Positions 2,213 to 17,535 of a stretch of DNA of 32,000 nucleotides are shown here, in pieces. The DNA comes from Halomicrobium mukohataei DSM 12286. Its GTDB lineage: Archaea > Halobacteriota > Halobacteria > Halobacteriales > Haloarculaceae. The stretch lies in NCBI RefSeq assembly GCF_000023965.1, contig NC_013202.1, positions 1,200,001 to 1,232,000 of the forward strand, given 5' to 3'. Made by a program: the position numbers and the translations under genes. Each line of letters begins with the position of its first letter. The stretch's first letter is position 1. The notes beneath the pieces are model-generated. The model did not search any database. It was not told where the DNA came from and saw only the letters and a list, made by a program, of their open reading frames with translations.

Positions 2213-3448
2213 ATGCGTCCCGCCACCGTCTCGATCCTCGCCCTCCTCTTCGTCGTGCTGTCGCTGCCCGCCGTAGTTGCGGGTCCTGTCCCCGCTGAAC
2301 AGGGGACGGCGGCGCAGTTCGACGATCCGTCTCCGGTGATCGTCCCGATCCAAGAGTTCGCCAACTACCTGACGATTCCGCCTGGCAACGTGACGGTCTC
2401 CGACCACGGAGCCGTCAACGTCAACACCGGGACGGCAGTCGCGACCGACGCCGCGTCCCTCCGCGGACAGCATCGGACGACCGCCTTCGAAAACGAGTTC
2501 TACGACACCTCCTCGACCAGCGAGCGGTCCGAGATCATCCGCTCGGAAGTGAGCTGGGCAGAGACCAGGTCCGACGAGTTGCGCGTCCGACGCGCCGGTG
2601 CCATCGAGGCGTACGCCTCCGGGACGATATCCACCACGAAGTTCGTTCGGACGATGGCACTGATCGACACCGAAGCACGGCAGATCTCGGCGACGATCGG
2701 TCGGGTCAAAGACGTCGCCAGACGGTCGAGTTACTCGCTTCCGAGGCGACTCGACACGCGTATCGAGAATCTCAGAGGCGAGGTCGAGGTGCTCCGCGGG
2801 CCGGTCGCCCGACGTGCCAGCGAGGCCGTCACCGGTGACCGGCGGATCGAATCGGTCTACGTCGAAAGTTCGGACTCGGGGTACACGCTCGCGATGGTCG
2901 ACGGCGACTCGTACTACCGCGAGACGTATCTCGCCGACGAGCGTCGGCCCGAGGCCACCGATCAGTTCCGGGAGAGCGACCTCTATCTGGTCAACGCGGC
3001 CAACCGTCGTGGCATCGAGCTGTACCCCTGGGTGACAAACGACACCTCGCCGTCCGGCCAGGCGCTCGGCGAGACCGGCATCTACCGGTTCCGGGCCGAG
3101 TACACCAGCGGCGACCTCACGGCGTATCTCGACGGCGGGACCACCAACGTCTTCCGGGAACACCAGCGCCAGTCGCTGGCGGCGATTCCGGTTACCGACA
3201 CGGTGACCGAACAGGACGACTCGCTCCGGCTCCGGATCAATCGGACGTACGAAACCGGGCCGATGCACGTCCGGCTGGTCGACAGTGTGACCGGCGAGCC
3301 GGTGTCCGGAACCGTCCGGATCGACGGCGAGTACGTCGGGACGACCGGTGCGGACGGGGCCCTCTGGACCGTCGAGCCACGCCCCGGTGTTCCGCTGACG
3401 GTCCGCACCGACGACGGCACCGTCTTCGACGCCCGGCTCCCACCCTGA
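2213..3448 (+). CDS. Secreted/surface protein of unknown function (signal peptide, helical middle region, C-terminal carboxypeptidase-regulatory-like beta domain)
   Basis: ATG at 2213. N-terminus is MRPATVSILALLFVVLSLPAVVAG. Composition is acidic. The C-terminus VRLVDSVTGEPVSGTVRIDGEYVGTTGADGALWTV resembles CarboxypepD_reg-type folds. Divergent from the wHTH gene. Confidence 0.7.
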   Translation: MRPATVSILALLFVVLSLPAVVAGPVPAEQGTAAQFDDPSPVIVPIQEFANYLTIPPGNVTVSDHGAVNVNTGTAVATDAASLRGQHRTTAFENEFYDTSSTSERSEIIRSEVSWAETRSDELRVRRAGAIEAYASGTISTTKFVRTMALIDTEARQISATIGRVKDVARRSSYSLPRRLDTRIENLRGEVEVLRGPVARRASEAVTGDRRIESVYVESSDSGYTLAMVDGDSYYRETYLADERRPEATDQFRESDLYLVNAANRRGIELYPWVTNDTSPSGQALGETGIYRFRAEYTSGDLTAYLDGGTTNVFREHQRQSLAAIPVTDTVTEQDDSLRLRINRTYETGPMHVRLVDSVTGEPVSGTVRIDGEYVGTTGADGALWTVEPRPGVPLTVRTDDGTVFDARLPP

Positions 3449-3479
3449 CGTTCAAACCGGAACGGGCCACACCGGCCGT

Positions 3480-3941
3480 ATGGACCGGGCCACCTCGCCG
3501 GTCGTCGGTGTCGCGCTACTGCTCGCGCTGACGGTGCTGGCCGCGACCGCGGTCGGCACCGCCGCTGTCGCTCTCGATACCCCGACCCCGGCACCGACGG
3601 CGTCGTTCTCGCTGACGGCCGACGCCGCAACCGACACGCTGGTCCTGACACACCGAGGCGGCGACACCGTCTCAGTCGAGCGACTGCGGCTGGTCGTCAC
3701 GGTCGGCGGGGACGAACTCGACTCCCAGCCGCCGGTGCCGTTCTTCGCCGCCGAGGGGTTTCGAGGCGGCCCCACCGGCCCGTTCAACAGCGCCGACGAC
3801 GGCACCTGGAGTGGCGGCGAACGGGGATCGTTTCGAATCGCGTCGACGAACGCACCGCTGCCGGCAGCTGGGGATACCGTCGTGGTCCGGCTCCTCGCCG
3901 GTGACACGATCGTCGGGACCGTCCGCGCGACTGCGAGCTGA
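3480..3941 (+). CDS. Archaeal type IV pilin-like protein (class III signal peptide, DUF1628-type N-terminus)
   Basis: MDRATSPVVGVALLLALTVLAATAVG matches the archaeal pilin/DUF1628 N-terminal pattern (R-A-x-S-P-V-I/V-G-V then a hydrophobic helix). Lies 31 nt downstream of the secreted-protein gene. Confidence 0.75.
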   Translation: MDRATSPVVGVALLLALTVLAATAVGTAAVALDTPTPAPTASFSLTADAATDTLVLTHRGGDTVSVERLRLVVTVGGDELDSQPPVPFFAAEGFRGGPTGPFNSADDGTWSGGERGSFRIASTNAPLPAAGDTVVVRLLAGDTIVGTVRATAS

Positions 3942-4039
3942 CGGCCTGTACGAGCGTCACCACACCGACGCGGCGAGTCGTTTCTCGGCGGCCGCCTCGA
4001 CCGTCTCGTACGGCCTATTGTAGATCGGTCCCGAAGATC

Positions 4040-4660
4040 TTACTCGGGGACGCGTGCGATCGTGGTGATGGCCTTCGGACTTCCCGGTCTGTTCTGCTGA
4101 ATGAAGTGCTCGAAGTCGGTGAAGCCAGCGTCTTCGAACATCCGGTCGGCCTCGTCCTCGTCGTAGAACAGCATGATCGCGTCCGCGAGCTTCTGGAAGA
4201 CACTCTGGCTCGGGTAGTCCGGACCGACGATCAGCACCCGTCCGCCGGGCTTGGTGATCCGCCGGCACTCTTCGAGCGCGTCGACGGGGTTGGGCCAGTA
4301 CTCGATCGATCCCGACGACCAGACCACGTCGAACGTGTCGTCTTGGAAGGGGAGTCGTTCCGCGTCGCCGCGGTGGAACGCGACCGGACCGCGCTTGCCG
4401 AACTTCGCGTACGCCTTCTCCAGTTGGTGGGCGCTCTGGTCGAGCCCGTAGACGTGTTCGGTCGCTTCGAGCAGTCCCTCCGTGGCGAAGCCGGTGCCAC
4501 ATCCCACGTCGAGGACGTGATCGTCCGGTTCGATGTCGAGCTTCGCGATCGCCTCGTCGCGCATCTCCTCGTTCCAGATGAATGGGTTGACACGGTCGTA
4601 CACCTTCGAGAGGTACTTGTAGAACGTCCGCGCACGCGACTTGTTTTCGAGGACTCCCAT
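4040..4660 (-). CDS. Class I SAM-dependent methyltransferase (UbiE/MPBQ-MSBQ methyltransferase-like)
   Basis: SAM motif I VLDVGCGTGF and post-I/II blocks RLPFQDDTFDVVWSSGSIEYWPNP and KPGGRVLIVGP. ATG at 4658-4660. Confidence 0.85.
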   Translation of the reverse strand: MGVLENKSRARTFYKYLSKVYDRVNPFIWNEEMRDEAIAKLDIEPDDHVLDVGCGTGFATEGLLEATEHVYGLDQSAHQLEKAYAKFGKRGPVAFHRGDAERLPFQDDTFDVVWSSGSIEYWPNPVDALEECRRITKPGGRVLIVGPDYPSQSVFQKLADAIMLFYDEDEADRMFEDAGFTDFEHFIQQNRPGSPKAITTIARVPE

Positions 4661-4838: not shown

Positions 4839-5171
4839 ATGCCACGGCCAGAAGTTCTCGACCGTATCAAAGCGGCCGAACAGGACGCCGACGACATTGT
4901 CGACGAGGCCGAACAGGACCGTGAGCAACGACTCGAAGACGCTCGCGAGGAAGCCGAGCAGATCCGCGAGACGGCCCGAGAGGAGGCCCAATCGGCAGCC
5001 CAGGAGCGTCTCGAAGAGGCTCGTGCCGAAATCGAGGCCGATCGCAAGGAACTGCTCGAAGAGGGCGAGCAGGCCCGCGACGATCTCGAATCGCGCGCCC
5101 AAGAGCGCACCGAGGACGTGATCGAACACGTCACAGAACTGTTCGAGGAGGCGGTACATGCTCAGACCTGA
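4839..5171 (+). CDS. atpH: A-type ATP synthase subunit H
   Basis: 110 aa, highly charged coiled-coil protein (EAEQDREQRLEDAREEAEQIRE). It directly precedes atpI and overlaps it by 14 nt. Position and composition are typical of haloarchaeal AtpH. Confidence 0.8.
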   Translation: MPRPEVLDRIKAAEQDADDIVDEAEQDREQRLEDAREEAEQIRETAREEAQSAAQERLEEARAEIEADRKELLEEGEQARDDLESRAQERTEDVIEHVTELFEEAVHAQT

Positions 5172-7398
5172 GCGAATGAGCCGCGTCTCGGTGACCGGCT
5201 CGAAACGCGTCATGGACGACGTCATCGAGACCGTCCACGACCTGGGTCTGTTGCACGTCACCGAGTACGACGGCTCGTGGGACTACTTCGAACCCGGCGA
5301 CCCGGCCGAAGGAGCCGAAGACGGCTCTGAGAAGCTCGTCACCGTCCGCTCGCTCAAGTCGATCCTCGATGTCGACGAGGCCGACGCCGGCCCGACGCGG
5401 CTGGTGACCGACGAGGCACTCGACGAGGAACTCGAAGAGATCCGTCAGACGGTCAACGAACTCGACGACCGACGCGACGAACTCACGGACGAACTCCGAA
5501 CGATCGAAGACGAGATCCAGACGATCGACCCGTTCGTCACGCTGGGGATCGATCTGGACCTCCTTCAGGGGTACGAGAACCTGTCCGTGGTCGTCGGCGA
5601 AGGCGACATCGAGACCGTCCGGGACGCACTCGCACACAGCGACGTCGACCTCTACCAGTTCTTCCAGGAAGACGACGTCATCGCGGTGGCCGCACGCACG
5701 GACGAGGACACGCTGCAGGATGCTCTCGTCAGCGCGACGTTCACGGAGCTGACGGTACCCGACAGCGAGGCCGATCCCGAGTCCCACCGCGAGGAACTTC
5801 AGCACCGCAAACAGCAACTCGAATCGAAGCTCACGACCGTCGAGGACGAACTCGAAGACCTTCGCCTCGACGTCGCCGGTTTCCTGCTCGCGGCCGAGGA
5901 GAAGCTGGCGATCGACGTGCAAAAGAGCGAGGCCCCGCTGACGTTCGCGACGACGGAACACGCCTTCGTCGCCGAGGGGTGGATCCCCTCGGATCGGTAC
6001 GCGGACCTCGCGGAAGCGCTGACCGACGCCGTCGGCGAGGCGATCGAGGTCGACGAACTCGAACGAGCAGACTACAGCGACGAGGGCCACCCGGAGTCCA
6101 CCGAGACGGTCGAGACCGACGACTCCGGCGGCTCGGGCGGCGCGTCGACCGGCGAGACCGTCGAGGCGTCCGCCAGCGACGAGACCGAGAGTCAGGAGGT
6201 CGCCGCCGACGGCGGACTCGTGACGATGGGCGACAGCCGCCCGCCGGTCATCCAGGACAACCCCGGCGTCGTCAAGCCGTTCGAGGCGCTCGTCGAGATC
6301 ATCAACCGACCCCAGTACGACGAACTCGACCCGACGGTCGTCTTCTTCCTCACGTTCCCGGCGTTCTTCGGGTTCATGATCGGTGACCTCGGCTACGGGA
6401 TCCTCTACATGGGACTTGGCTACTGGCTGTTGAAGTCCTTCGACAACGACGTGGTCAAGAGCCTGGGCGGTGTCGGCCTGCTGTCTGGCCTGTTTACCGC
6501 CATCTTCGGCGTGTTGTACGGTGAACTGTTCGGTCTCCACCAGCTCGGAGATATCCTCTGGAACGGTCATCCGCCGATCCACAAGGGGCTCCAGCCACAC
6601 TACCTGGCGTACGGACAGGCCTGGCTCCTCGTCAGCGTCATCGCTGGCGTGCTTCACCTCGTCGTCGGCCGGATCTTCGACTTCTACAACAACCTCGATC
6701 ACGGCCTCGGTGAGGCGATCATGGAGAGTGGCTCGTGGATCCTCTTCACCGTCGGCCTCTGGCTGTGGGTGTTCACCCGGACCGCCATGGGACCGAAGCC
6801 CTCGTTCATGTTCGAGGTGTTCGGCAGCGGTGAGGGCGCGGCGCTGCCGATCGGCTTCACCGGCTTCCCCGTGCTGGAGCTGTTCCGGGTCCCGCTTGGC
6901 GGGTTCGACCTCGTGGTCGGCGTCGCGCTGGCCATGACGATCGTCGGACTGATCATGGTCATCGCCGCCGAGGGCGGGATCGGTCTCATCGAGTCGATCA
7001 CTCAGGGCTTCGGGCACGTCGTCTCCTACACCCGGATCGCTGCGGTGCTGCTGGCCAAGGCCGGGATGGCACTCGCCGTCAACCTGCTCGTGTTCGGTGC
7101 GACCCTCCACGGTGGAGAGTTCCACCTGATCTGGTTCATGTCCGAGGAGCCAGTCGCCGACGACGTCGTCTTCCAGGGGCTGCTGAACCTCGACGGGTCG
7201 ATGGCGATCGTCGGCCTCCTGTTCGGGCTCGTCCTCCTGGTGCTCGGGCACCTGCTGGTGCTCGTGCTCGGGATCACCTCTGCCGGCCTCCAGGCCGTCC
7301 GTCTCGAATACGTCGAGTTCTTCGGCAAGTTCTTCGAGGGCGGCGGCAAGGCCTACGAGCCGTTCGGGTACGATCGCGAGTTCACGACCGAGGAGTAA
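5158..7398 (+). CDS. atpI: A-type ATP synthase subunit I (a-subunit homologue)
   Basis: 746 aa. Starts MLRPERMSRVSVTGSK, has a coiled-coil cytoplasmic half and a multi-TM C-terminal half with RIAAVLLAKAGMA and the conserved Arg region YTRI. An acidic Ser/Thr/Glu-rich linker separates the halves. Confidence 0.9.
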   Translation: MLRPERMSRVSVTGSKRVMDDVIETVHDLGLLHVTEYDGSWDYFEPGDPAEGAEDGSEKLVTVRSLKSILDVDEADAGPTRLVTDEALDEELEEIRQTVNELDDRRDELTDELRTIEDEIQTIDPFVTLGIDLDLLQGYENLSVVVGEGDIETVRDALAHSDVDLYQFFQEDDVIAVAARTDEDTLQDALVSATFTELTVPDSEADPESHREELQHRKQQLESKLTTVEDELEDLRLDVAGFLLAAEEKLAIDVQKSEAPLTFATTEHAFVAEGWIPSDRYADLAEALTDAVGEAIEVDELERADYSDEGHPESTETVETDDSGGSGGASTGETVEASASDETESQEVAADGGLVTMGDSRPPVIQDNPGVVKPFEALVEIINRPQYDELDPTVVFFLTFPAFFGFMIGDLGYGILYMGLGYWLLKSFDNDVVKSLGGVGLLSGLFTAIFGVLYGELFGLHQLGDILWNGHPPIHKGLQPHYLAYGQAWLLVSVIAGVLHLVVGRIFDFYNNLDHGLGEAIMESGSWILFTVGLWLWVFTRTAMGPKPSFMFEVFGSGEGAALPIGFTGFPVLELFRVPLGGFDLVVGVALAMTIVGLIMVIAAEGGIGLIESITQGFGHVVSYTRIAAVLLAKAGMALAVNLLVFGATLHGGEFHLIWFMSEEPVADDVVFQGLLNLDGSMAIVGLLFGLVLLVLGHLLVLVLGITSAGLQAVRLEYVEFFGKFFEGGGKAYEPFGYDREFTTEE

Positions 7399-7835: not shown

Positions 7836-7886
7836 CTCCGGTATGGCCATATGCGCTTGTCCGGAACCAACTACAGGATTCCAACA

Positions 7887-8144
7887 ATGTCATCCGCACT
7901 ACTCCAAGCGTTTGTCGGTAGTACCGCTGCTGCACCTGCAATCCCACCGCTGGCCGCCGCCGCGCTGGCCGTCGGACTCGCCGCAATCGGTGCAGGCTAC
8001 GCGGAACGTGGAATCGGTGCCGCCGCAGTCGGTGCGATCGCGGAGGACGACTCCATGTTCGGTCGTGGCCTGATTCTGACAGTGCTCCCGGAGACCATCG
8101 TCATTCTGGCACTGGTCGTCGTGTTCCTCACGCTGGGACAGTAG
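7887..8144 (+). CDS. atpK: A-type ATP synthase subunit K (proteolipid c subunit)
   Basis: Track ORF 7851..8144; I prefer the ATG at 7887 (MSSALLQAFV). Two-helix proteolipid with GLAAIGAGYAERGIGAAAVGA and the ion-binding Glu in LPETIVILALVVVF. Confidence 0.85.
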   Translation: MSSALLQAFVGSTAAAPAIPPLAAAALAVGLAAIGAGYAERGIGAAAVGAIAEDDSMFGRGLILTVLPETIVILALVVVFLTLGQ

Positions 8145-8168: not shown

Positions 8169-8753
8169 ATGAGTCTTGAAACAGTCGCAGAGGACATCCG
8201 AGACGAGGCCCGCGCGCGTGCAGAGGAGATTCGTATCGACGCCGACGAGCGCGCCGAAGAGATCATCGAGGCGGCCGAGGCCGACGCCGAAGAGATCCGC
8301 GAACAGCGACAGGCCGAGGTCGAACGCGAAATCGAGCAGGAGCGAGAGCAGAAACTCTCCAGCGCGAAACTGGAGGCAAAGCAGGAGCGACTCGAGGCTC
8401 GCCGCGACGTACTCCAATCGGTCCGCGACAGCGTCGAAGCGGAGATCGCCTCCCTCGAGGGCGATCGTCGAGAAGAGCTGACGCGGACGCTGCTCGACGC
8501 TGCCACGGCGGAGTTCGACGACGACGCCGGTGTGCAAGTGTACGGGCGAGCCGACGACGCCGACCTGCTGGAGTCGATCCTCGCCGACTACGACGGCTAC
8601 GAGCTGGCCGGCGAGTACGACTGTCTGGGCGGCGTCGTCGTCGAGAGCGAGAGTTCGCGTATCAGCGTGAACAACACGTTCGACTCCGTTCTCGACGACG
8701 TCTGGGAGAACAACCTGCGAGACATCAGTTCACGGCTCTTCGAGGAGCAATGA
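8169..8753 (+). CDS. atpE: A-type ATP synthase subunit E
   Basis: 194 aa. Charged N-terminal helix, globular C-terminus (GGVVVESESSRISVNNTFDSVL). ATGA overlap with atpC. Confidence 0.85.
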   Translation: MSLETVAEDIRDEARARAEEIRIDADERAEEIIEAAEADAEEIREQRQAEVEREIEQEREQKLSSAKLEAKQERLEARRDVLQSVRDSVEAEIASLEGDRREELTRTLLDAATAEFDDDAGVQVYGRADDADLLESILADYDGYELAGEYDCLGGVVVESESSRISVNNTFDSVLDDVWENNLRDISSRLFEEQ

Positions 8754-9826
8754 CCGTACGCTTCGAAGAACAGAACTGGGAAAGCGCAAACTACGAGTAC
8801 GTCATCACGCGTGTCCGCTCTCGTCGGGCGAAGCTGTTCGACGACGACGACTACCGGAAGCTCGTCCGTATGGGTCCCTCCGAGATCTCCCGGTTCATGG
8901 AGGAGACGGAGTACGAGACCGAGATGAACGCCCTGGGAGCGCGATACAGTGGCGTCGACCTCGTCGAGTACGCGCTAAACCGGAACCTCGCCAAGCACTT
9001 CGAGGACCTGCTGCGCTGGTCGGACGGGCGACTGTACGACTACGTCGCCCGCTACCTCCGGAAGTTCGACGTGTGGAACGTCAAGACGATCGTCCGGGGG
9101 ATCTACTCCGAGGCCGACGCCAAGGAGGTCGAAGACGACCTGATTCGTGCCGGCGAACTGTCCGAGCAGCTGCTCGACCAGCTCGTCGCCGCCGGTTCGA
9201 TCGAGGAGGTCGTCGAACTCCTCGACGGCACGATCTTCGGCGACGACCTCGCCGAGGCGTACCAGGACTACGAGGACAGCGGCGTACTCGTCCCGCTGGA
9301 GAACGCGCTCGACCGGGCGTTCTACGACGTGTTGCTCTCGGGGCTGCCCACGCAGCCGGAAGTCGACTCTCCGACTGGCCTGTACGTCTCCTTTCTCACG
9401 GCCGAGATCGACTTCCGGAACCTCCGGAACGCCCTTCGACTCGCTCGCAGCGGGGCGGAGATCGATCCGGCCGAGTACCACATCGAGGGCGGTCGCCTGT
9501 TCGACGCCGACGAGATCGGCGCACTCGCAACGAGCACCGACCAGCTCGTCCAGCGGGTTCGTGAGAGCACGTACGGCGACGACCTTGACGCGGCACTCGA
9601 CACCCTCGAAGCGGCCGACAGCCTCATCGAGTTCGAGTACGCCCTCGACGCGGCACTGCTCGAGTACTCCGATCAGCTGTCGAACCGCTACCCGCTGTCG
9701 GTCTGTCCGGTCTTATCCTACATCCTCGCCAAGGAGCGCGAGGTCGACAACATCCGAGCGATCGCTCGGGGCCGCGAGGCCGGACTCGACAGCGACGAGA
9801 TCGAACAGGAGCTGGTGATACTATGA
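8750..9826 (+). CDS. atpC: A-type ATP synthase subunit C
   Basis: 358 aa, with NYEYVITRVRSRRAKL and YILAKEREVDNIRAIARG typical of the V/A-type C (d) subunit. ATGA overlap with atpF. Confidence 0.85.
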   Translation: MTVRFEEQNWESANYEYVITRVRSRRAKLFDDDDYRKLVRMGPSEISRFMEETEYETEMNALGARYSGVDLVEYALNRNLAKHFEDLLRWSDGRLYDYVARYLRKFDVWNVKTIVRGIYSEADAKEVEDDLIRAGELSEQLLDQLVAAGSIEEVVELLDGTIFGDDLAEAYQDYEDSGVLVPLENALDRAFYDVLLSGLPTQPEVDSPTGLYVSFLTAEIDFRNLRNALRLARSGAEIDPAEYHIEGGRLFDADEIGALATSTDQLVQRVRESTYGDDLDAALDTLEAADSLIEFEYALDAALLEYSDQLSNRYPLSVCPVLSYILAKEREVDNIRAIARGREAGLDSDEIEQELVIL

Positions 9827-10146
9827 GTCAGGAGATCGGTGTCATCGGCAGTCCCGACTTCACGACGGGGTTCCGGCTGGCCGGCGTACGGAAGTTCGCC
9901 GACGTGCCGGACGCCGACAAAGACGAGGAACTCGACGCTGCCGTCGAGGAGATGCTCGACGACGAGGAGATCGGTATCATCGTGATGCACGACGACGACC
10001 TTGAGCACCTCTCGCGCGGGGTGCGCAAGGACGCCGAGACGAGCGTCGAACCGGTGATGGTGACACTCGGCGGCGGCACCGGCAGTGGTGGCCTGCGCGA
10101 CCAGATCAAACGCGCGATCGGAATCGACCTGATGGAGGAAGACTAA
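9823..10146 (+). CDS. atpF: A-type ATP synthase subunit F
   Basis: 107 aa, [18 protein letters not shown]. Position between atpC and atpA. Confidence 0.85.
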
Positions 10147-10147
10147 T

Positions 10148-11908
10148 ATGAGTCAAGCGACAGAATCCGACGTCCGTGAAGACGGCGTCATCGACAGCGT
10201 CTCGGGGCCAGTCGTCACGGCGACCGGCCTCGACGCCCGGATGAACGACGTGGTGTACGTCGGTTCGGAAGGGCTGATGGGCGAAGTGATCGAGATCGAA
10301 GGCGACATCACCACGATCCAGGTGTACGAAGAGACCTCCGACGTCTCTCCGGGCGAACCGGTCGAAGGGACCGGTTCCCCACTGTCCGTCGACCTGGGTC
10401 CAGGGATGCTGGACGCGATCTACGACGGCGTCCAGCGCCCGCTGGACGTTCTCGAAGAGAAGATGGGATCGCCCTACCTCGACCGCGGCGTCGACGCTCC
10501 CGGGATCGACTTAGAGAAGACCTGGGAGTTCGAGCCCGAAGTCGAGGCCGGCGACGAGGTTTCCAGCGGCGACATCGTCGGGACCGTCCCCGAGACGCCC
10601 AGTATCGACCACAAAGTGATGGTGCCTCCCGACTCCGACGGCGGCGAAGTCGTCGCCGCCGAGTCGGGTAACTTCACCGTCGAGGAGCCGGTCGTCGAAC
10701 TCGACACCGGCGAAGAGATCCAGATGCGCCAGGAGTGGCCGGTGCGCCAGCAGCGTCCCTCCGAGGAGAAGCAGACGCCGACCACGCCACTGATCTCCGG
10801 CCAGCGAGTGCTCGACGGTCTGTTCCCCATCGCGAAGGGCGGGACGGCCGCGATTCCCGGTCCTTTCGGGTCCGGGAAGACGGTCACCCAGCACCAGCTC
10901 GCCAAGTGGGCCGACGCGGACATCGTCGTCTACGTCGGCTGTGGCGAGCGTGGCAACGAGATGACCGAAGTGATCGAGGACTTCCCCGAGCTGGAGGATC
11001 CGACCACCGGCAACGCGCTGATGGACCGGACCTGCCTCATCGCGAACACCTCGAACATGCCCGTCGCAGCGCGTGAATCCTGTGTCTACACCGGAATCAC
11101 GATCGCGGAGTACTTCCGTGACATGGGCTACGACGTGGCACTGATGGCCGACTCCACCTCCCGGTGGGCCGAGGCCATGCGGGAGATTTCCTCCCGCCTC
11201 GAAGAGATGCCCGGCGAAGAGGGGTACCCGGCCTATCTCGCCGCGCGCCTCTCGGAGTTCTACGAGCGGGCCGGCTACTTCCAGAACATCAACGGCTCCG
11301 AAGGGTCGGTCTCCGTCATCGGGGCGGTCTCGCCGCCGGGCGGGGACTTCTCCGAACCGGTCACCCAGAACACGCTGCGTATCGTCAAGACGTTCTGGGC
11401 GCTGGACGCGGACCTGGCGGAACGCCGCCACTTCCCGTCGATCAACTGGAACGAGTCGTACTCCCTGTATCGCGACCAGCTCGACCCGTGGTTCGTCGAG
11501 AACGTCCGCGACGACTGGCCCGAGAAGCGCCAGTGGGGCATCGACACCCTCGACGAGGAAGCGGAACTTCAGGAGATCGTCCAGCTCGTCGGGAAGGACG
11601 CGCTGCCGGAAGACCAGCAGCTCACGCTGGAAGTCGCACGCTACCTGCGTGAGGCGTGGCTCCAGCAGAACGCGTTCCACCCGACGGACACCTACTGTGA
11701 GCCCGAGAAGACCTACCGTATCCTCGACGCCATCAAGACCTACAACGACGAGGCGTTCGACGCGCTCGACGCCGGGGTCCCGGTCGAGGAGCTGACGGAT
11801 CTCGAGACCGTCCCGCGGCTCAACCGGATCGGTGTCCAGGAGGAGTACAACGAGTACATCGACGAACTCGAAGCGGACATCGAGAGCGAAATTCAGGAGC
11901 TGTACTAA
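10148..11908 (+). CDS. atpA: A-type ATP synthase catalytic subunit A
   Basis: 586 aa with Walker [24 protein letters not shown] and the non-homologous region typical of A subunits. No intein-sized insertion. Confidence 0.97.
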
Positions 11909-11910
11909 CG

Positions 11911-13326
11911 ATGAAGAAAGAATACGAGACAATCACGGAGATCAGCGGCCCGCTGGTGTTCGCGGAAGTCGACGAGCCGGTCGGCTACGACGAGATCGTC
12001 GAGATCGACACCGGCGACGGCGACGTTCGCCGCGGCCAGGTGCTGGAATCGACGAGCGACTACGTCGCGATCCAGGTCTTCGAGGGAACGACGGGGATCG
12101 ACCGCAACTCCTCCGTTCGCTTCCTCGGCGAGACGATGAAGATGAAGCTCACCGAGGACCTGCTGGGGCGTGTCCTCAGCGGTTCCGGTGACCCGATCGA
12201 CGGTGGTCCCGAGATCGAACCGGACGAGCGTCGTGACATCGTCGGCAAGGCGATCAACCCCTACTCCCGGGAGTACCCCGAGGAGTTCATCCAGACCGGC
12301 GTCTCCGGTATCGACGGGATGAACACCCTCGTGCGCGGACAGAAACTGCCGATCTTCTCGGCGTCGGGGCTGCCCCACAACGATCTGGCACTCCAGATCG
12401 CCCGTCAGGCCAGCGTCCCGGAAGAGGAGGAAGGCGACGACGACGAGGGGTCGGAGTTCGCAGTGATCTTCGGGGCGATGGGGATCACCCAGGAAGAGGC
12501 AAACGAGTTCATGGACGACTTCGAGCGCACCGGCGCACTCGAACGCTCCGTCGTCTTCATGAACCTCGCAGACGACCCGGCCGTCGAGCGAACGCTCACC
12601 CCGCGGCTGGCACTGACGACCGCGGAGTACCTCGCCTTCGACAAGGGGTATCACGTGCTCGTGATCCTCACGGACATGACCAACTACTGTGAGGCACTGC
12701 GCGAGATCGGTGCCGCACGAGAAGAGGTCCCGGGTCGCCGTGGCTACCCCGGATACATGTACACCGACCTGGCACAGCTCTACGAGCGTGCGGGTCGAAT
12801 CGAGGGTCGCGAGGGCTCTGTCACCCAGATCCCGATCCTCACGATGCCGGGCGACGACGACACGCACCCGATCCCGGACCTGACCGGCTACATCACGGAG
12901 GGCCAGATCTACATCGATCGGGACCTCAACAGCCAGGGGATCGAACCGCCGATCAACGTCCTGCCGAGCCTCTCGCGGCTGATGGACGACGGGATCGGCG
13001 AGGGACTGACCCGTGTCGACCACGCGGACGTGAAAGACCAGATCTTCGCCGCCTACGCGGAAGGTGAGGACCTGCGCGACCTCGTCAACATCGTCGGCCG
13101 CGAGGCGCTGTCGGACCTGGACAACAAGTACCTCGACTTCGCCGACCGGTTCGAGACGGAGTTCGTCGACCAGGGGATCGACACCGATCGCTCCATCGAC
13201 GAGACGCTCGAACTCGGCTGGGACCTCCTCTCGATGCTCCCAAAGGACGCACTCAACCGTATCGACGAGGAGCTGATCGAGGAACACTACCGCGAAGACG
13301 AGACCCAGGAAGTCACCGCGGACTGA
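11911..13326 (+). CDS. atpB: A-type ATP synthase subunit B
   Basis: 471 aa: [60 protein letters not shown]. Confidence 0.97.
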
Positions 13327-13343
13327 CGCTCCGTTTCCGTCTA

Positions 13344-13349
13344 TTTTTT
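13344..13349 (+). terminator. Oligo-T tract (T6) downstream of atpB
   Basis: CTATTTTTTGCC lies 18 nt after the atpB stop. Archaeal RNA polymerase terminates at oligo-T runs. Confidence 0.5.
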
Positions 13350-13383
13350 GCCAGTCGTGATCTGGTCGCCAGCGGCCGCACTT

Positions 13384-13409
13384 TCTCGGTGCGACAGTCT
13401 CGGTGCGAC
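13384..13409 (+). repeat. Tandem direct repeat 2 x TCTCGGTGCGAC (2-nt spacer) upstream of bop
   Basis: Identical 12-mers at 13384-13395 and 13398-13409, read directly from the sequence. Confidence 0.8.
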
Positions 13410-13587
13410 CCGTTCGAGCGCCGAGTGGTCGTCTTCGGAGAGGACGGCGAGTCCCACCGCCGTGCTGTGGTTTCCCTTTCGGCAGATTTTGCCGCACGGA
13501 CGAAGCCGCTCTCCCCGGTGTCTGTGTTTGATTCGCGTCTCCTCGCCGGGCTCGGGAAGGCGTACCAATCCCTGTTGGCATGGGCTG

Positions 13588-13593
13588 TTTAAG
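13588..13593 (+). promoter_or_regulatory. TATA-like box (TTTAAG) upstream of bop
   Basis: Centred about 30 nt upstream of the ATG at 13621, consistent with a leaderless or short-leader haloarchaeal transcript. Confidence 0.4.
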
Positions 13594-13620
13594 TGTCGGG
13601 CCGTTATTACAACATGAACC

Positions 13621-14388
13621 ATGTTACAGTCTGGCATGAGCACGTACGTACCGGGCGGCGAAAGCATATTCCTGTGGGTCGGGACGGCAGGAATGTTCCT
13701 GGGGATGTTGTACTTCATCGCCCGGGGCTGGAGTGTCTCCGACCAGCGTCGCCAGAAGTTCTACATCGCGACGATCATGATCGCCGCGATCGCCTTCGTG
13801 AACTACCTCTCGATGGCACTGGGTTTCGGTGTCACGACCATCGAACTCGGCGGCGAGGAACGGGCGATCTACTGGGCGAGATACACCGACTGGCTGTTCA
13901 CGACGCCGTTGCTGCTGTACGACCTCGCCCTGCTGGCGGGGGCCGACCGGAACACGATCTACTCGCTGGTCGGTCTGGACGTGCTGATGATCGGTACCGG
14001 CGCGCTCGCGACGCTGTCGGCGGGTTCGGGCGTCCTCCCGGCGGGTGCCGAACGCCTCGTCTGGTGGGGTATCAGCACCGGCTTCCTGCTGGTCCTGCTG
14101 TACTTCCTGTTCAGCAACCTCACCGACCGAGCGAGCGAGCTCTCGGGTGACTTGCAGTCGAAGTTCTCGACGCTGCGCAACCTGGTGCTGGTCCTGTGGC
14201 TCGTGTACCCCGTCCTGTGGTTGGTCGGGACCGAGGGCCTCGGACTCGTCGGCCTCCCGATCGAGACGGCCGCGTTCATGGTGCTCGACCTGACCGCCAA
14301 GATCGGCTTCGGTATCATCCTGCTCCAGAGTCACGCGGTCCTCGACGAGGGCCAGACCGCGTCGGAAGGCGCAGCCGTCGCCGACTGA
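13621..14388 (+). CDS. bop: Bacteriorhodopsin (light-driven outward proton pump, cruxrhodopsin-like)
   Basis: Seven-TM opsin. [19 protein letters not shown] carries the R82/D85/T89/D96 equivalents (DTD motif). [14 protein letters not shown] and IETAAF carry the W182/Y185/W189 and E194/E204 equivalents. [11 protein letters not shown] carries D212 and the Schiff-base Lys. Start may be 13621 (MLQSGM) or 13636 (MSTYV). Confidence 0.93.
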
Positions 14389-14537
14389 TCGCGGCTCCCC
14401 TCTCGCCACTCCAGTCGAAACACTCAGGGCGATCTGCCCGATAGTGTGACCGAGCGGACCGTGGTCGCCACGGCGGTCCGCCCGACGCACCGTCCGCACA
14501 GCGCCGTCTCAGTACATCCGCGTTTCAGTACGTCACA

Positions 14538-15272
14538 ATGGCCGCTTTCACATACGTCCAATTTCACGCGCTGTTCGTCCTCCCGGCGCTTGCGGTGCTC
14601 GTGGGGGTAGCGGGAATGCGCTCGCGCGCGACACGAAGCGAGGTCCGCCCCCTCGCCGTCGCCGTCATCATCGCAGTAGCGATGCTGTACACCGTGCCCT
14701 GGGACAACTACCTCATCTTGCGGGGCGTCTGGTCCTACGGCACCGACAGCGTCGCGGCCGTCATCTGGCACGCGCCCATCGAGGAGTACCTGTTTATCCT
14801 CTTGCAGCCACTGGTCGCCGCGCTGTGGCTGCACGTGATCTCGCCGGGGATGCCGGCGAACGACGAGACGACGGTCTCCGCTCGTGATCGGGTGGTCGGG
14901 GCTGCGGCGGGAGCGCTCGTCGGTCTCGTCGGCGTGGCTCTCCTCACGAGCGACGCGACCTTCTACCTCGGTGCGATCGTCGCCTGGAGCGGCCCGGTGC
15001 TCGCGCTCCAGTGGGCCGTCGGATGGCCGTACCTCCTCGCTCGGGGACAGACGCTCGTCGTAGCCGTCTTCGCGCCGACGGCGTACCTCTGGATCGCGGA
15101 TCGCGTCGCCCTGGAGTCGGGCATCTGGATCCTCTCGGAGCAGTACACGACGGGGCTGGCCGTCCTCGGCCTGCCACTCGAAGAGGCCGCGTTCTTCCTC
15201 GTGACAAACGTCTTCGTCGTACAGGGGTTGCTGTTGTACCCGTGGGTGATCGACCGATGGCGGTCGAGGTAA
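14538..15272 (+). CDS. crtY: Lycopene beta-cyclase (fused CrtYc/CrtYd-type lycopene cyclase domain protein)
   Basis: 244 aa polytopic protein with duplicated lycopene-cyclase-domain blocks ([26 protein letters not shown], then [19 protein letters not shown]). Adjacent to bop and blh. Confidence 0.85.
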
Positions 15273-16306
15273 CCGCCGATCGGGGCCGACGGCTGCGGTC
15301 GGGCCGTCGACGCCTCGCTCGCTGGACCTTTCTGCCGGCCTGGCTGGTGCTCGGTGCTGTCACGGTCGCCCACATCCTGGGCGTGTCGACCGCCGTTCCG
15401 GTTCGCTACGGCGTCTTGCTGGTGACGCTGCTCTGTTTCGGACTGCCACACGGCGCTGCCGACCACCACTCGGTCGCACGAACGCTCGGCGTCGACCTCA
15501 CGCCTCGGTTCCTCGCGGCGTTCTGTGCGGGGTATCTCGGACTCGCAGTGCTGTACACCGCCGTCTGGTTCCTCGCACCGGCCCTCGCGTTCGTCGCCTT
15601 CGTCGCACTGACGTGGTTTCACTGGGGACAGGGCGACGTGTATCCGCTGGCGACACTCGCCGACGGTCGCCACCTCGACAATCGAGCCGTCGCAGCGCTG
15701 ACGGTAGTCGTCCGCGGCGGCCTCCCGATGTTGGTCCCGCTCGTCTTCTTTCCGGATCGATACGCCGCTGTCGCCCGGACGGTCGTCTCGCTGTTCGACC
15801 CCGGTCGGACCGGGTCGCTCGCGCCGCTGTTCACCCAGGAGGCGGGCATCGTCGCCGGGGTCGGATTCGCCGCCATCACGGTGGTGACGCTGGCAGCCGG
15901 GCTCGCAGTGGCCGGTCCGAGACGCGCCTGGCTCCTCGACGCCGCCGAGACGGCGCTGCTGTGGGGCTTTTTCGCGGTCGTTCCGCCGGTCCTCGCGATC
16001 GGGGTCTACTTCGCCCTGTGGCACTCGGTACGCCACATCGCCCGGCTGACCGAACTCGACGGGGTCGCGCTGGCGGCACTGGACCGCGGTGCCGTCGCCC
16101 GTGTGGTCGGTCGCTTCACGCGAGACGCGCTTCCGGCGACGGTCGGCGCAGTCGTCCTGTTTGGCGGCCTCGCACTGGCCGTTCCGACGACGGTGGCCGG
16201 CGTCTCCGAGGTCGGCGGGCTGTATCTCGTCTTGCTCGCGGTGCTGACCCTGCCCCACGTCGTCGTCGTCACCTGGCTCGACGTGCGACAGGGAATTTGG
16301 GGGTAA
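15257..16306 (+). CDS. blh: Brp/Blh family beta-carotene 15,15'-dioxygenase (retinal synthesis)
   Basis: In-frame ATG at 15257 within track ORF 15011..16306 ([10 protein letters not shown]). Membrane protein with the four conserved His blocks [26 protein letters not shown] and LTLPHVVVV. Overlaps the crtY 3' end by 16 nt. Confidence 0.85.
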
Positions 16307-16350
16307 CGACCGCGTCAGTCGGTGATCGGCCCCGTCCCGGCCGTGGGAAC

Positions 16351-16364
16351 TGTAAAAGGTTATC
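16351..16364 (+). promoter_or_regulatory. TATA-like box (TGTAAAAGGTTATC) upstream of atpD
   Basis: Lies 29-35 nt upstream of the atpD ATG at 16390 and implies an atpD-specific promoter. Confidence 0.45.
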
Positions 16365-16389
16365 CGACTGGGCCCGTAACGCCCCGATA

Positions 16390-17085
16390 ATGGCCAAGGA
16401 CGTCAAACCCACCCGGAAAGAGCTGATGCGAATCGAGGATCGCATCGACCTCTCGGAACGGGGCCACGACACGCTGGAGAAGAAACGCGACGGCCTCATC
16501 ATGGAGTTCATGGACATCCTCGACCAGGCACAGGACGTTCGATCCGACCTCGACGACTCCTACGGTCGCGCCCAACACGCGATCAACATGGCTCGGGCGA
16601 TGGACGGCGACGTGGCCGTCCGCGGTGCCGCGGCCGCACTGAAGGAGCATCCTGAGCTGACGACCCAGTCCAAGAACATCATGGGCGTCGTCGTCCCCCA
16701 GATCGAGTCCAGCAAGGTCCGTAAGTCCCTCGACGAGCGTGGATACGGCGTCATGGGTACGTCGGCCCGGATCGACGAGGCCGCCGACGCCTACGAGGAA
16801 CTCATCGAGAACATCATCCTCGCGGCCGAGGTCGAGACCGCGATGAAGAAGATGCTCGAGGAGATCGAGACCACCAAACGCCGCGTCAACGCGCTGGAGT
16901 TCAAGCTGCTGCCCGATCTGTACGACAACAAGGAGTACATCGAGCAGAAGCTCGAAGAACAGGAGCGCGAAGAGATCTTCCGCATGAAGAAGATCAAGAA
17001 CAAGAAAGAGGAAGAGGAGGCTGCAGCCCGCGAGGAAGAGAACGCGGAGGCCGAAGAGGCCGCCGCCGTCGCCGCCGACGACTGA
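16390..17085 (+). CDS. atpD: A-type ATP synthase subunit D (central stalk)
   Basis: ATG at 16390 within track ORF 15613..17085. [40 protein letters not shown] and [14 protein letters not shown] are canonical V/A-type D subunit blocks. Acidic/lysine-rich tail. Confidence 0.9.
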
Positions 17086-17105: not shown

Positions 17106-17145
17106 CGCCGCCGAGCTTTTGCCAGTGCCACGCCCACGTCAGTAC

Positions 17146-17535
17146 ATGGACTGTCCCGAGTGTGGCCACGAGACCGTCGTCTTCGCCGTCGATCCCGAAC
17201 TCCGGGAGTACCTCCCCGGCGATGATCCGGGCGCGTCGCTGTGCCCGCGGTGTCTGTCCGTCCGTCCCGCCGTGGAGCCGCCAGCCAGCGAACCGGACTT
17301 TTCGCCCCTCGGCGACGCGTTTCCCGATGGCGGGGCCGCCGTCCCGATGGCGCTGTTGCTCGGCCTGCTCTCCTCGCTGGCGCTGTATCGCGACGAGATC
17401 GCCGCGCTGCTGGAGCGTGTCGAGCGTGCCGGCACCGATCCACTGCTGGTGATCGATAGACTCGACGCCGATCCCGGGATCGAGAGCGAGGTCGACCTCG
17501 GCCGTCGTCGCCACCAGCTCGAACAACTGCTGTGA
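17146..17535 (+). CDS. Small zinc-ribbon protein of unknown function (conserved haloarchaeal type)
   Basis: MDCPECGHETVVF...CPRCLS forms a CxxC-x(n)-CxxC ribbon followed by a hydrophobic/helical C-terminal half. The track ORF starts at a TTG at 17119; I prefer the ATG at 17146. Confidence 0.6.
   Translation: MDCPECGHETVVFAVDPELREYLPGDDPGASLCPRCLSVRPAVEPPASEPDFSPLGDAFPDGGAAVPMALLLGLLSSLALYRDEIAALLERVERAGTDPLLVIDRLDADPGIESEVDLGRRRHQLEQLL

Follow-up and report, generated by a model that had tools for sequence, protein, structure and literature searches.

What is a bacteriorhodopsin gene doing among the genes of an ATP synthase, and is it expressed with them? In Halomicrobium mukohataei DSM 12286, a sequenced type strain, the opsin gene bop and two retinal-synthesis genes, crtY and blh, stand between atpB and atpD of the A-type ATP synthase. 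We studied this arrangement in a window of 32,000 nucleotides of high-GC haloarchaeal DNA (NC_013202.1, positions 1,200,001 to 1,232,000; coordinates below are those of the window), in which 13327-16389 is the exact interval from the atpB stop codon to the atpD start codon. Matches to Pfam and NCBIfam models bear out the gene identities and the + strand order proposed in an earlier sequence-only reading of this DNA: atpH-I-K-E-C-F-A-B, bop, crtY, blh, atpD. Judged from its sequence signals, the interval very probably holds a known chromosomal phototrophy cassette with its own transcription unit, placed at the boundary between atpHIKECFAB and atpD with the DUF6276 gene that follows it.

The opsin gene (bop, 13621-14388) encodes a protein that matches PF01036 (Bac_rhodopsin) over profile positions 3-222 of 224, with 228.7 bits and an E value of 8e-68. 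An exact look-up shows that this protein is 100% identical to Swiss-Prot Q53496, cruxrhodopsin-2, and to ACV47404. The closest solved structures are those of Haloarcula marismortui BRI (HmBRI, 4PXK) and cruxrhodopsin-3 (4JR8), both matched over the full length at E ~1e-117; set beside the cruxrhodopsins and HmBRI (4JR8/4L35, 4PXK), the window opsin is cruxrhodopsin-2 itself, a protein that has had its name since the 1990s. Opsins at the same junction in Haloarcula are 72-81% identical to it by tblastn. We aligned the protein to a bacteriorhodopsin reference sequence whose landmark positions were confirmed. This puts opsin R87, D90, T94, D101, E205, E215, D223 and K227 at bacteriorhodopsin R82, D85, T89, D96, E194, E204, D212 and K216, so that the six pump residues listed from sequence alone are all present, and E194 and E204 are found as well. 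With the Schiff-base lysine and the DTD motif all kept, the assignment of the product as a bacteriorhodopsin-type outward proton pump is a sound prediction, and the protein would pump protons outward in the light. Proton pumping has been reported for the relatives HmBRI and pws5-BR (Verma et al. 2020, Front Microbiol 11:554927; PMC7755889). The opsin start differs among databases, being given as 255 aa (ATG 13621; Swiss-Prot and GenBank), 250 aa (ATG 13636; RefSeq) and 231 aa. The TTTAAG box described below lies where a leaderless start at 13621 would put it, and a second AT-rich box, gttattaca at ~13602-13610, would fit 13636.

Two further genes would provide the chromophore. The crtY gene (14538-15272; annotated as ACV47405, lycopene cyclase domain protein) encodes a putative lycopene beta-cyclase of the CrtYc/Yd type, in which two lycopene-cyclase domains are fused; it matches TIGR03462 in two stretches with 127.3 bits (cut-off 39.4); its score against Pfam PF18916, 24.5, lies under the cut-off of 27. 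The blh gene (15257-16306; annotated as ACV47406, 349 aa) has its ATG inside the end of crtY, so that the two genes share 16 nt. Its product scores 243 bits against TIGR03753 (cut-off 95) and 270 bits against PF15461 (cut-off 28), the latter over profile positions 2-267 of 267, and on this full-length model match is a predicted Brp/Blh-family beta-carotene 15,15'-dioxygenase. CrtY would convert lycopene to beta-carotene and Blh would convert beta-carotene to retinal; the two genes may be translationally coupled. Haloarchaea make lycopene as a precursor of bacterioruberin, and since lycopene is already at hand, bop, crtY and blh would be enough for a working pump. CrtY and Brp/Blh are reported to be the genetically defined retinal steps in Halobacterium salinarum (Peck et al. 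2001 and 2002). Proteorhodopsin clusters of marine bacteria (PR-crtEIBY-blh) likewise join an opsin to retinal-making genes; they differ in being bacterial, in carrying the whole carotenoid pathway and in having no link to an ATP synthase. In the spacer between bop and crtY, an imperfect GC-rich hairpin, GGACCGTGGTCGCCACGGCGGTCC, lies at 14446-14480 with no T-run behind it, and it is followed, just before the crtY ATG, by a direct repeat (tcagtaca...tcagtacg).

The cassette and its layout are already known: they are annotated, common among relatives and were published in 2020. GenBank lists bop, crtY, blh and atpD consecutively as ACV47404-ACV47407. Verma et al. described bop between the genes for subunits B and D in Halomicrobium, Haloarcula and Halorubrum, and crtY plus brp/blh at this junction too in the Halomicrobium isolate pws1, a near relative of H. 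mukohataei DSM 12286 (PMC7755889). Their organisation and ours share the genes, the order, the junction and the genus, with no difference in gene content. The possible novelty raised in the sequence-only reading is thus not upheld, and the synteny comparison across Halobacteria reported below finds the same order in related genera. Relatives differ in how much of the set stands at the junction. In Haloarcula bop is there alone, with crtY and blh elsewhere, whereas the window has all three. H. salinarum has crtY-blh at the same atpB-atpD junction (PMC7755889), its blh being OE3980R (Tarasov et al.); its bop lies off the junction, in the company of brp, bat, brz and crtB1 at a distance of ~500 kb, whereas the bop of the window heads the cassette and has no adjacent bat or brz. 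Halorubrum strains vary among themselves, and in Haloferax the junction holds only a bat/PAS gene (PMC7755889). In the sequence-only reading an unrelated open reading frame (ORF) was taken to separate atpB from atpD in Haloferax; an ORF does separate them, but it encodes a bat-like PAS-domain regulator and is not unrelated (PMC7755889). A literature search for HVO_0318 gave no match.

Is the cassette a transcription unit of its own? We looked for signals in the window and in 80 Halobacteria loci with 10-kb flanks, which were drawn from an AtpD scan of species-representative genomes. A T6 run at 13344-13349 (+ strand), 18 nt after the atpB stop codon, is a candidate archaeal oligo-T terminator, as had been noticed from the sequence alone. 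Between 4700 and 17700 the + strand has just three runs of five or more T, and this is one of them. T5-T6 runs also follow atpB in several relatives, though not in all. Upstream of bop lies an 18-bp palindrome, TACCAATCCCTGTTGGCA (13563-13580), a candidate site for a Bat-type activator, and after it a TATA-like box, TTTAAG (13588-13593, + strand), ~30 nt before ATG 13621, which implies a leaderless or near-leaderless mRNA. In all genera examined, the junction opsins are preceded by a palindrome of the form TACCnn-N6-nnGGTA, and at all opsin loci a TATA-like box comes 4-7 nt behind it. Of 31 opsin loci, 17 match the strict pattern T-N-CC-N10-K-G-Y-A close to the start of bop, where ~0.03 per locus would be expected by chance; all but one of these 17 matches are upstream and beside a TATA-like box, and the remaining loci show close variants. 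Within the window the exact motif ACCAA-N6-TTGGCA occurs once, as the bop palindrome. Furthermore, in the 294-bp spacer between atpB and bop the palindrome and TATA-like box are the only part that can be aligned with a more distant relative (L002). These signals indicate that bop has a putative promoter of its own, which is probably regulated.

The whole 294-nt spacer folds with z = -0.17, which speaks for no structured RNA, and no relics of bat, Yip1 or DUF7504 were found in it. A minus-strand ORF at 13341-13718 has no family match and was taken as a shadow ORF of high-GC DNA, and a scan for bacterial-type promoters and terminators was disregarded, being not meaningful for an archaeon. In Haloarcula and relatives (L003-L012, L014, L016, L018, L024), the palindrome reads TACCnnATATTTTGGGTA, stands ~40-60 nt before the bop start and has TTTACC or TTTAGC behind it; at the junction opsins of this HmBRI type, T5-T7 runs are frequent both after atpB and after bop.

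The downstream edge of the cassette carries a signal of its own. The box tgtaaaaggttatc (16351-16364, + strand) resembles a transcription factor B recognition element (BRE) with a TATA box and lies ~30 nt before the atpD ATG; this TATA-like box and the one before bop had both been seen in the sequence-only reading. When the 60 nt upstream of atpD were aligned by eye, almost all loci showed a ctGAAAAgGTTAAC-type motif ~27-42 nt ahead of the ATG. Counted more strictly, the core TTA[AT][CG] is present at -50 to -21 in 68/78 loci, against 1/78 at a control position. The box is there whatever stands upstream, be it atpB at a distance of 130 nt, blh, bop, bat or unrelated cargo, and its geometry is that of a predicted haloarchaeal BRE/TATA promoter for a leaderless mRNA. 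Because the box is conserved with or without an insert, the atpB/atpD junction looks like a boundary of two transcription units throughout Halobacteria, and such a boundary would plausibly explain why the junction tolerates cargo. Earlier the pump had been placed inside the locus of the synthase; a more fitting description puts it between two neighboring atp transcription units, and the evidence here supports no functional coupling beyond proximity. Two loci depart from the rule of the atpD promoter box: in Halorubrum sp. JWXQ-INN 858 (L061) the atpB-atpD gap is 5 nt and there is no box, and in a metagenome-assembled genome (MAG) of Halococcus (L022) the gap is 26 nt and a TTTAAC box falls within the 3' end of atpB.

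These signals also bear on a different explanation, in which atpH to atpB, bop, crtY, blh and atpD form one long operon that makes pump and synthase together and constitutively, as Verma et al. suggest for HmBRI. All the genes do lie on one strand, and no run of four or more T is found between blh and atpD. Such an operon would have to run through a T6 placed directly after atpB, where such runs are rare, and across a 294-bp spacer whose conservation with L002 is confined to the palindrome and box. It would also leave the palindrome and box of all genera surveyed, Haloarcula included, and the atpD box that is kept with or without an insert, to be accounted for. We consider the long operon improbable. 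The proposal from sequence alone, that the cassette is a unit separate from atpH-B and that atpD has its own promoter, is supported by the T6 run, the palindrome with its TATA-like box and the 68 of 78 atpD boxes. It had further been claimed that no run of four or more T lies between bop, crtY and blh. The stretch 13491-15967, which takes in the bop-crtY spacer and the crtY-blh overlap, is free of such runs; blh itself contains a T5 run, at 15968-15972.

Several points weigh against a separately promoted and regulated cassette. HmBRI has been said to lack a separate promoter and to be constitutively expressed, citing Fu et al. 2010 (PMC7755889); the palindrome and TATA-like box conserved at HmBRI-type opsins conflict with that statement. 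The T5 run inside blh could cause partial termination. No bat gene is found in the window, to which the search was limited. The likeness of the bop palindrome to the Bat-dependent upstream activating sequence (UAS) of H. salinarum bop, reportedly described by Baliga and DasSarma (1999), is a tentative one.

With these points set against it, the separate cassette is still the reading that we prefer, and from the sequence it would work as follows. Transcripts of atpH-B would terminate in the T6 run behind atpB. The bop-crtY-blh genes would be transcribed from the palindrome-linked promoter, with a start just before ATG 13621, and the palindrome would probably be bound by a Bat-type regulator with PAS, GAF and HTH domains. 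Since no T-run follows blh, some read-through into atpD may occur besides transcription from the promoter of atpD itself. For each of these steps of transcription and regulation we infer the event from the DNA.

How did the cassette come to this place? We compared the window proteins with the 80 loci by tblastn; gap ORFs were grouped into clusters, whose representatives were matched to Pfam. An atpB gene can be seen upstream of atpD in 61 loci. A bop-like opsin stands between these genes in 26 of the 61: 7 with bop-crtY-blh, 5 with bop-crtY and 14 with bop alone, most of the last being Haloarcula. In 5 more loci, where atpB is off the contig, an opsin stands directly upstream of atpD. The cassette of H. 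katesii (L001) shares 97-99% identity with that of the window. Nine loci, belonging to Halorubrum, Salinigranum, Halorussus, Halobellus and a MAG, have a gene for a Bat regulator (PAS, GAF, BAT, HTH_10) ahead of bop, and bat stands alone as atpB-bat-atpD in 2 others (L054, L073), which makes 11 loci with bat. The contents of the junction are thus of at least 8 kinds: bat-bop-crtY-blh, bat-bop-crtY, bat-bop, bop-crtY-blh, bop, bat, unrelated cargo and nothing. Unrelated cargo comprises DUF7504, WS/DGAT with DUF7504, Yip1 and DUF7096 surface proteins, and the empty junctions have atpB-atpD gaps of 5-220 nt. A gene for a DUF7096/Fn3_arc protein occupies the junction in three Halorubrum loci (L050, L070, L074). 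Whatever the content, the phototrophy genes lie on the + strand in the order (bat)-bop-(crtY)-(blh) throughout, with one exception, a Haloarculaceae MAG (L039:3-2912) in which crtY-bop-blh stands upstream of atpD.

Such variety might mean that the junction is a hotspot, filled by repeated independent insertion or by intergeneric spread through homologous recombination on the conserved atpB and atpD flanks, which are 84-94% identical at the protein level. Besides the very variable content, the patchy presence of the genes within Halorubrum and Haloarcula favors this idea, and random insertion was proposed by Verma et al. (PMC7755889). Composition and order speak against it. The bat-bop-crtY-blh order and strand are fixed but for L039. 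The GC content at third codon positions (GC3), which we compared between the cassette and its flanks, is 0.89 in bop, 0.87 in crtY and 0.82 in blh and 0.86-0.88 in atpI, atpC, atpA, atpB and atpD; the cassette is host-like, and gives no compositional sign of recent transfer. No transposase or repeat scars were seen at the surveyed junctions, nor by Verma et al. (PMC7755889). Furthermore, it would be unparsimonious for independent random insertions to bring one set of genes, in one order, to a single site, a point that spares recombination-mediated spread.

Pairwise distances cut both ways. Across 21 loci, distances between Bop proteins follow those between AtpA+AtpB+AtpD, with a Mantel r of 0.69 that was reached by 0/2000 permutations, and this strong congruence within lineages argues against a hotspot. 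The congruence arises within lineages, however; with one representative per lineage it falls to r = 0.33 (p = 0.15). This weakness between lineages lends the hotspot support and counts against the reading that we prefer, as a single ancestral origin is not demonstrated by it. On balance we regard the hotspot as doubtful. The 'recurrent insertion point' of the sequence-only reading therefore holds in that the content of the junction is variable, while the fixed order and strand and the distance tracking fit inheritance with piecemeal loss at least equally well.

For the location itself, fixed order and strand, host-like composition and co-divergence within lineages suggest an old and eroded cassette, and the place of the genes looks most simply like that of an old bat-bop-crtY-blh block which has been trimmed differently by lineage. 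A broader picture may be offered tentatively. The block may have stood at the atpB/atpD boundary since an early ancestor of Halobacteria, and lineages may since have retained it, trimmed it or swapped it through homologous recombination in the conserved atp flanks. The link between generator and consumer of proton-motive force would then be old, and either selectively maintained or favored by recombination, not a product of random insertion, and the junction opsins would have their own regulated promoter, contrary to the literature. Where Verma et al. have no separate promoter for HmBRI and random insertion (PMC7755889), the palindrome with its TATA-like box and the class-wide atpD box described here argue otherwise.

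The ATP synthase genes around the cassette make up a complete A-type (A1AO) set, H, I, K, E, C, F, A, B and D, of which atpH is near-threshold. All lie on the + strand. The atpH gene (4839-5171) scores 28.2 bits against V-ATPase_G, just below the cut-off of 28.6, and was assigned by this match and its position; atpI (5158-7398), atpK (7851-8144), atpE (8169-8753), atpC (8750-9826), atpF (9823-10146), atpA (10148-11908) and atpB (11911-13326) all score above the curated Pfam cut-offs. On the far side of the cassette, atpD (16390-17085; PF01813; NF001542, 372 bits; annotated as ACV47407) encodes subunit D. The DUF6276 gene (17119-17535, + strand; PF19792, 169 bits) comes after it and encodes a small protein with CPxCG-like cysteines. 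A gene of this family lies on the same strand within 400 nt 3' of atpD in 53/75 Halobacteria loci, and the DUF6276 gene is a conserved partner of atpD.

Some observations concern the atp genes and their surroundings alone. Just 5' of the cluster lie a gene for a DUF7096/DUF7094/Fn3_arc surface protein (2213-3448) and an archaeal type IV pilin gene (3480-3941). In two saltern MAGs, atpA carries inteins as in-frame insertions of 459 and 507 codons (L064:4276-5652 and L067:5424-6944; Intein_splicing and LAGLIDADG_3). In another MAG (L043:3236-4554), atpB is matched in two frames, 3236-3538 and 3535-4554, an apparent frameshift or assembly error. Rfam and tRNA scans of the window gave no matches.

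The locus has little discovery value as such, being annotated and having had its layout published in 2020. What the comparison adds is modest: an atpD box shared across the class, a palindrome and TATA-like box before bop, and a fixed gene order with host-like GC3. For Halobacteria, the atpB/atpD junction appears to be a natural transcription-unit boundary that tolerates cargo. The seemingly conserved regulatory palindrome at the junction opsins would correct, in a way open to testing, the published view in which these opsins lack promoters and ride on the ATPase operon.

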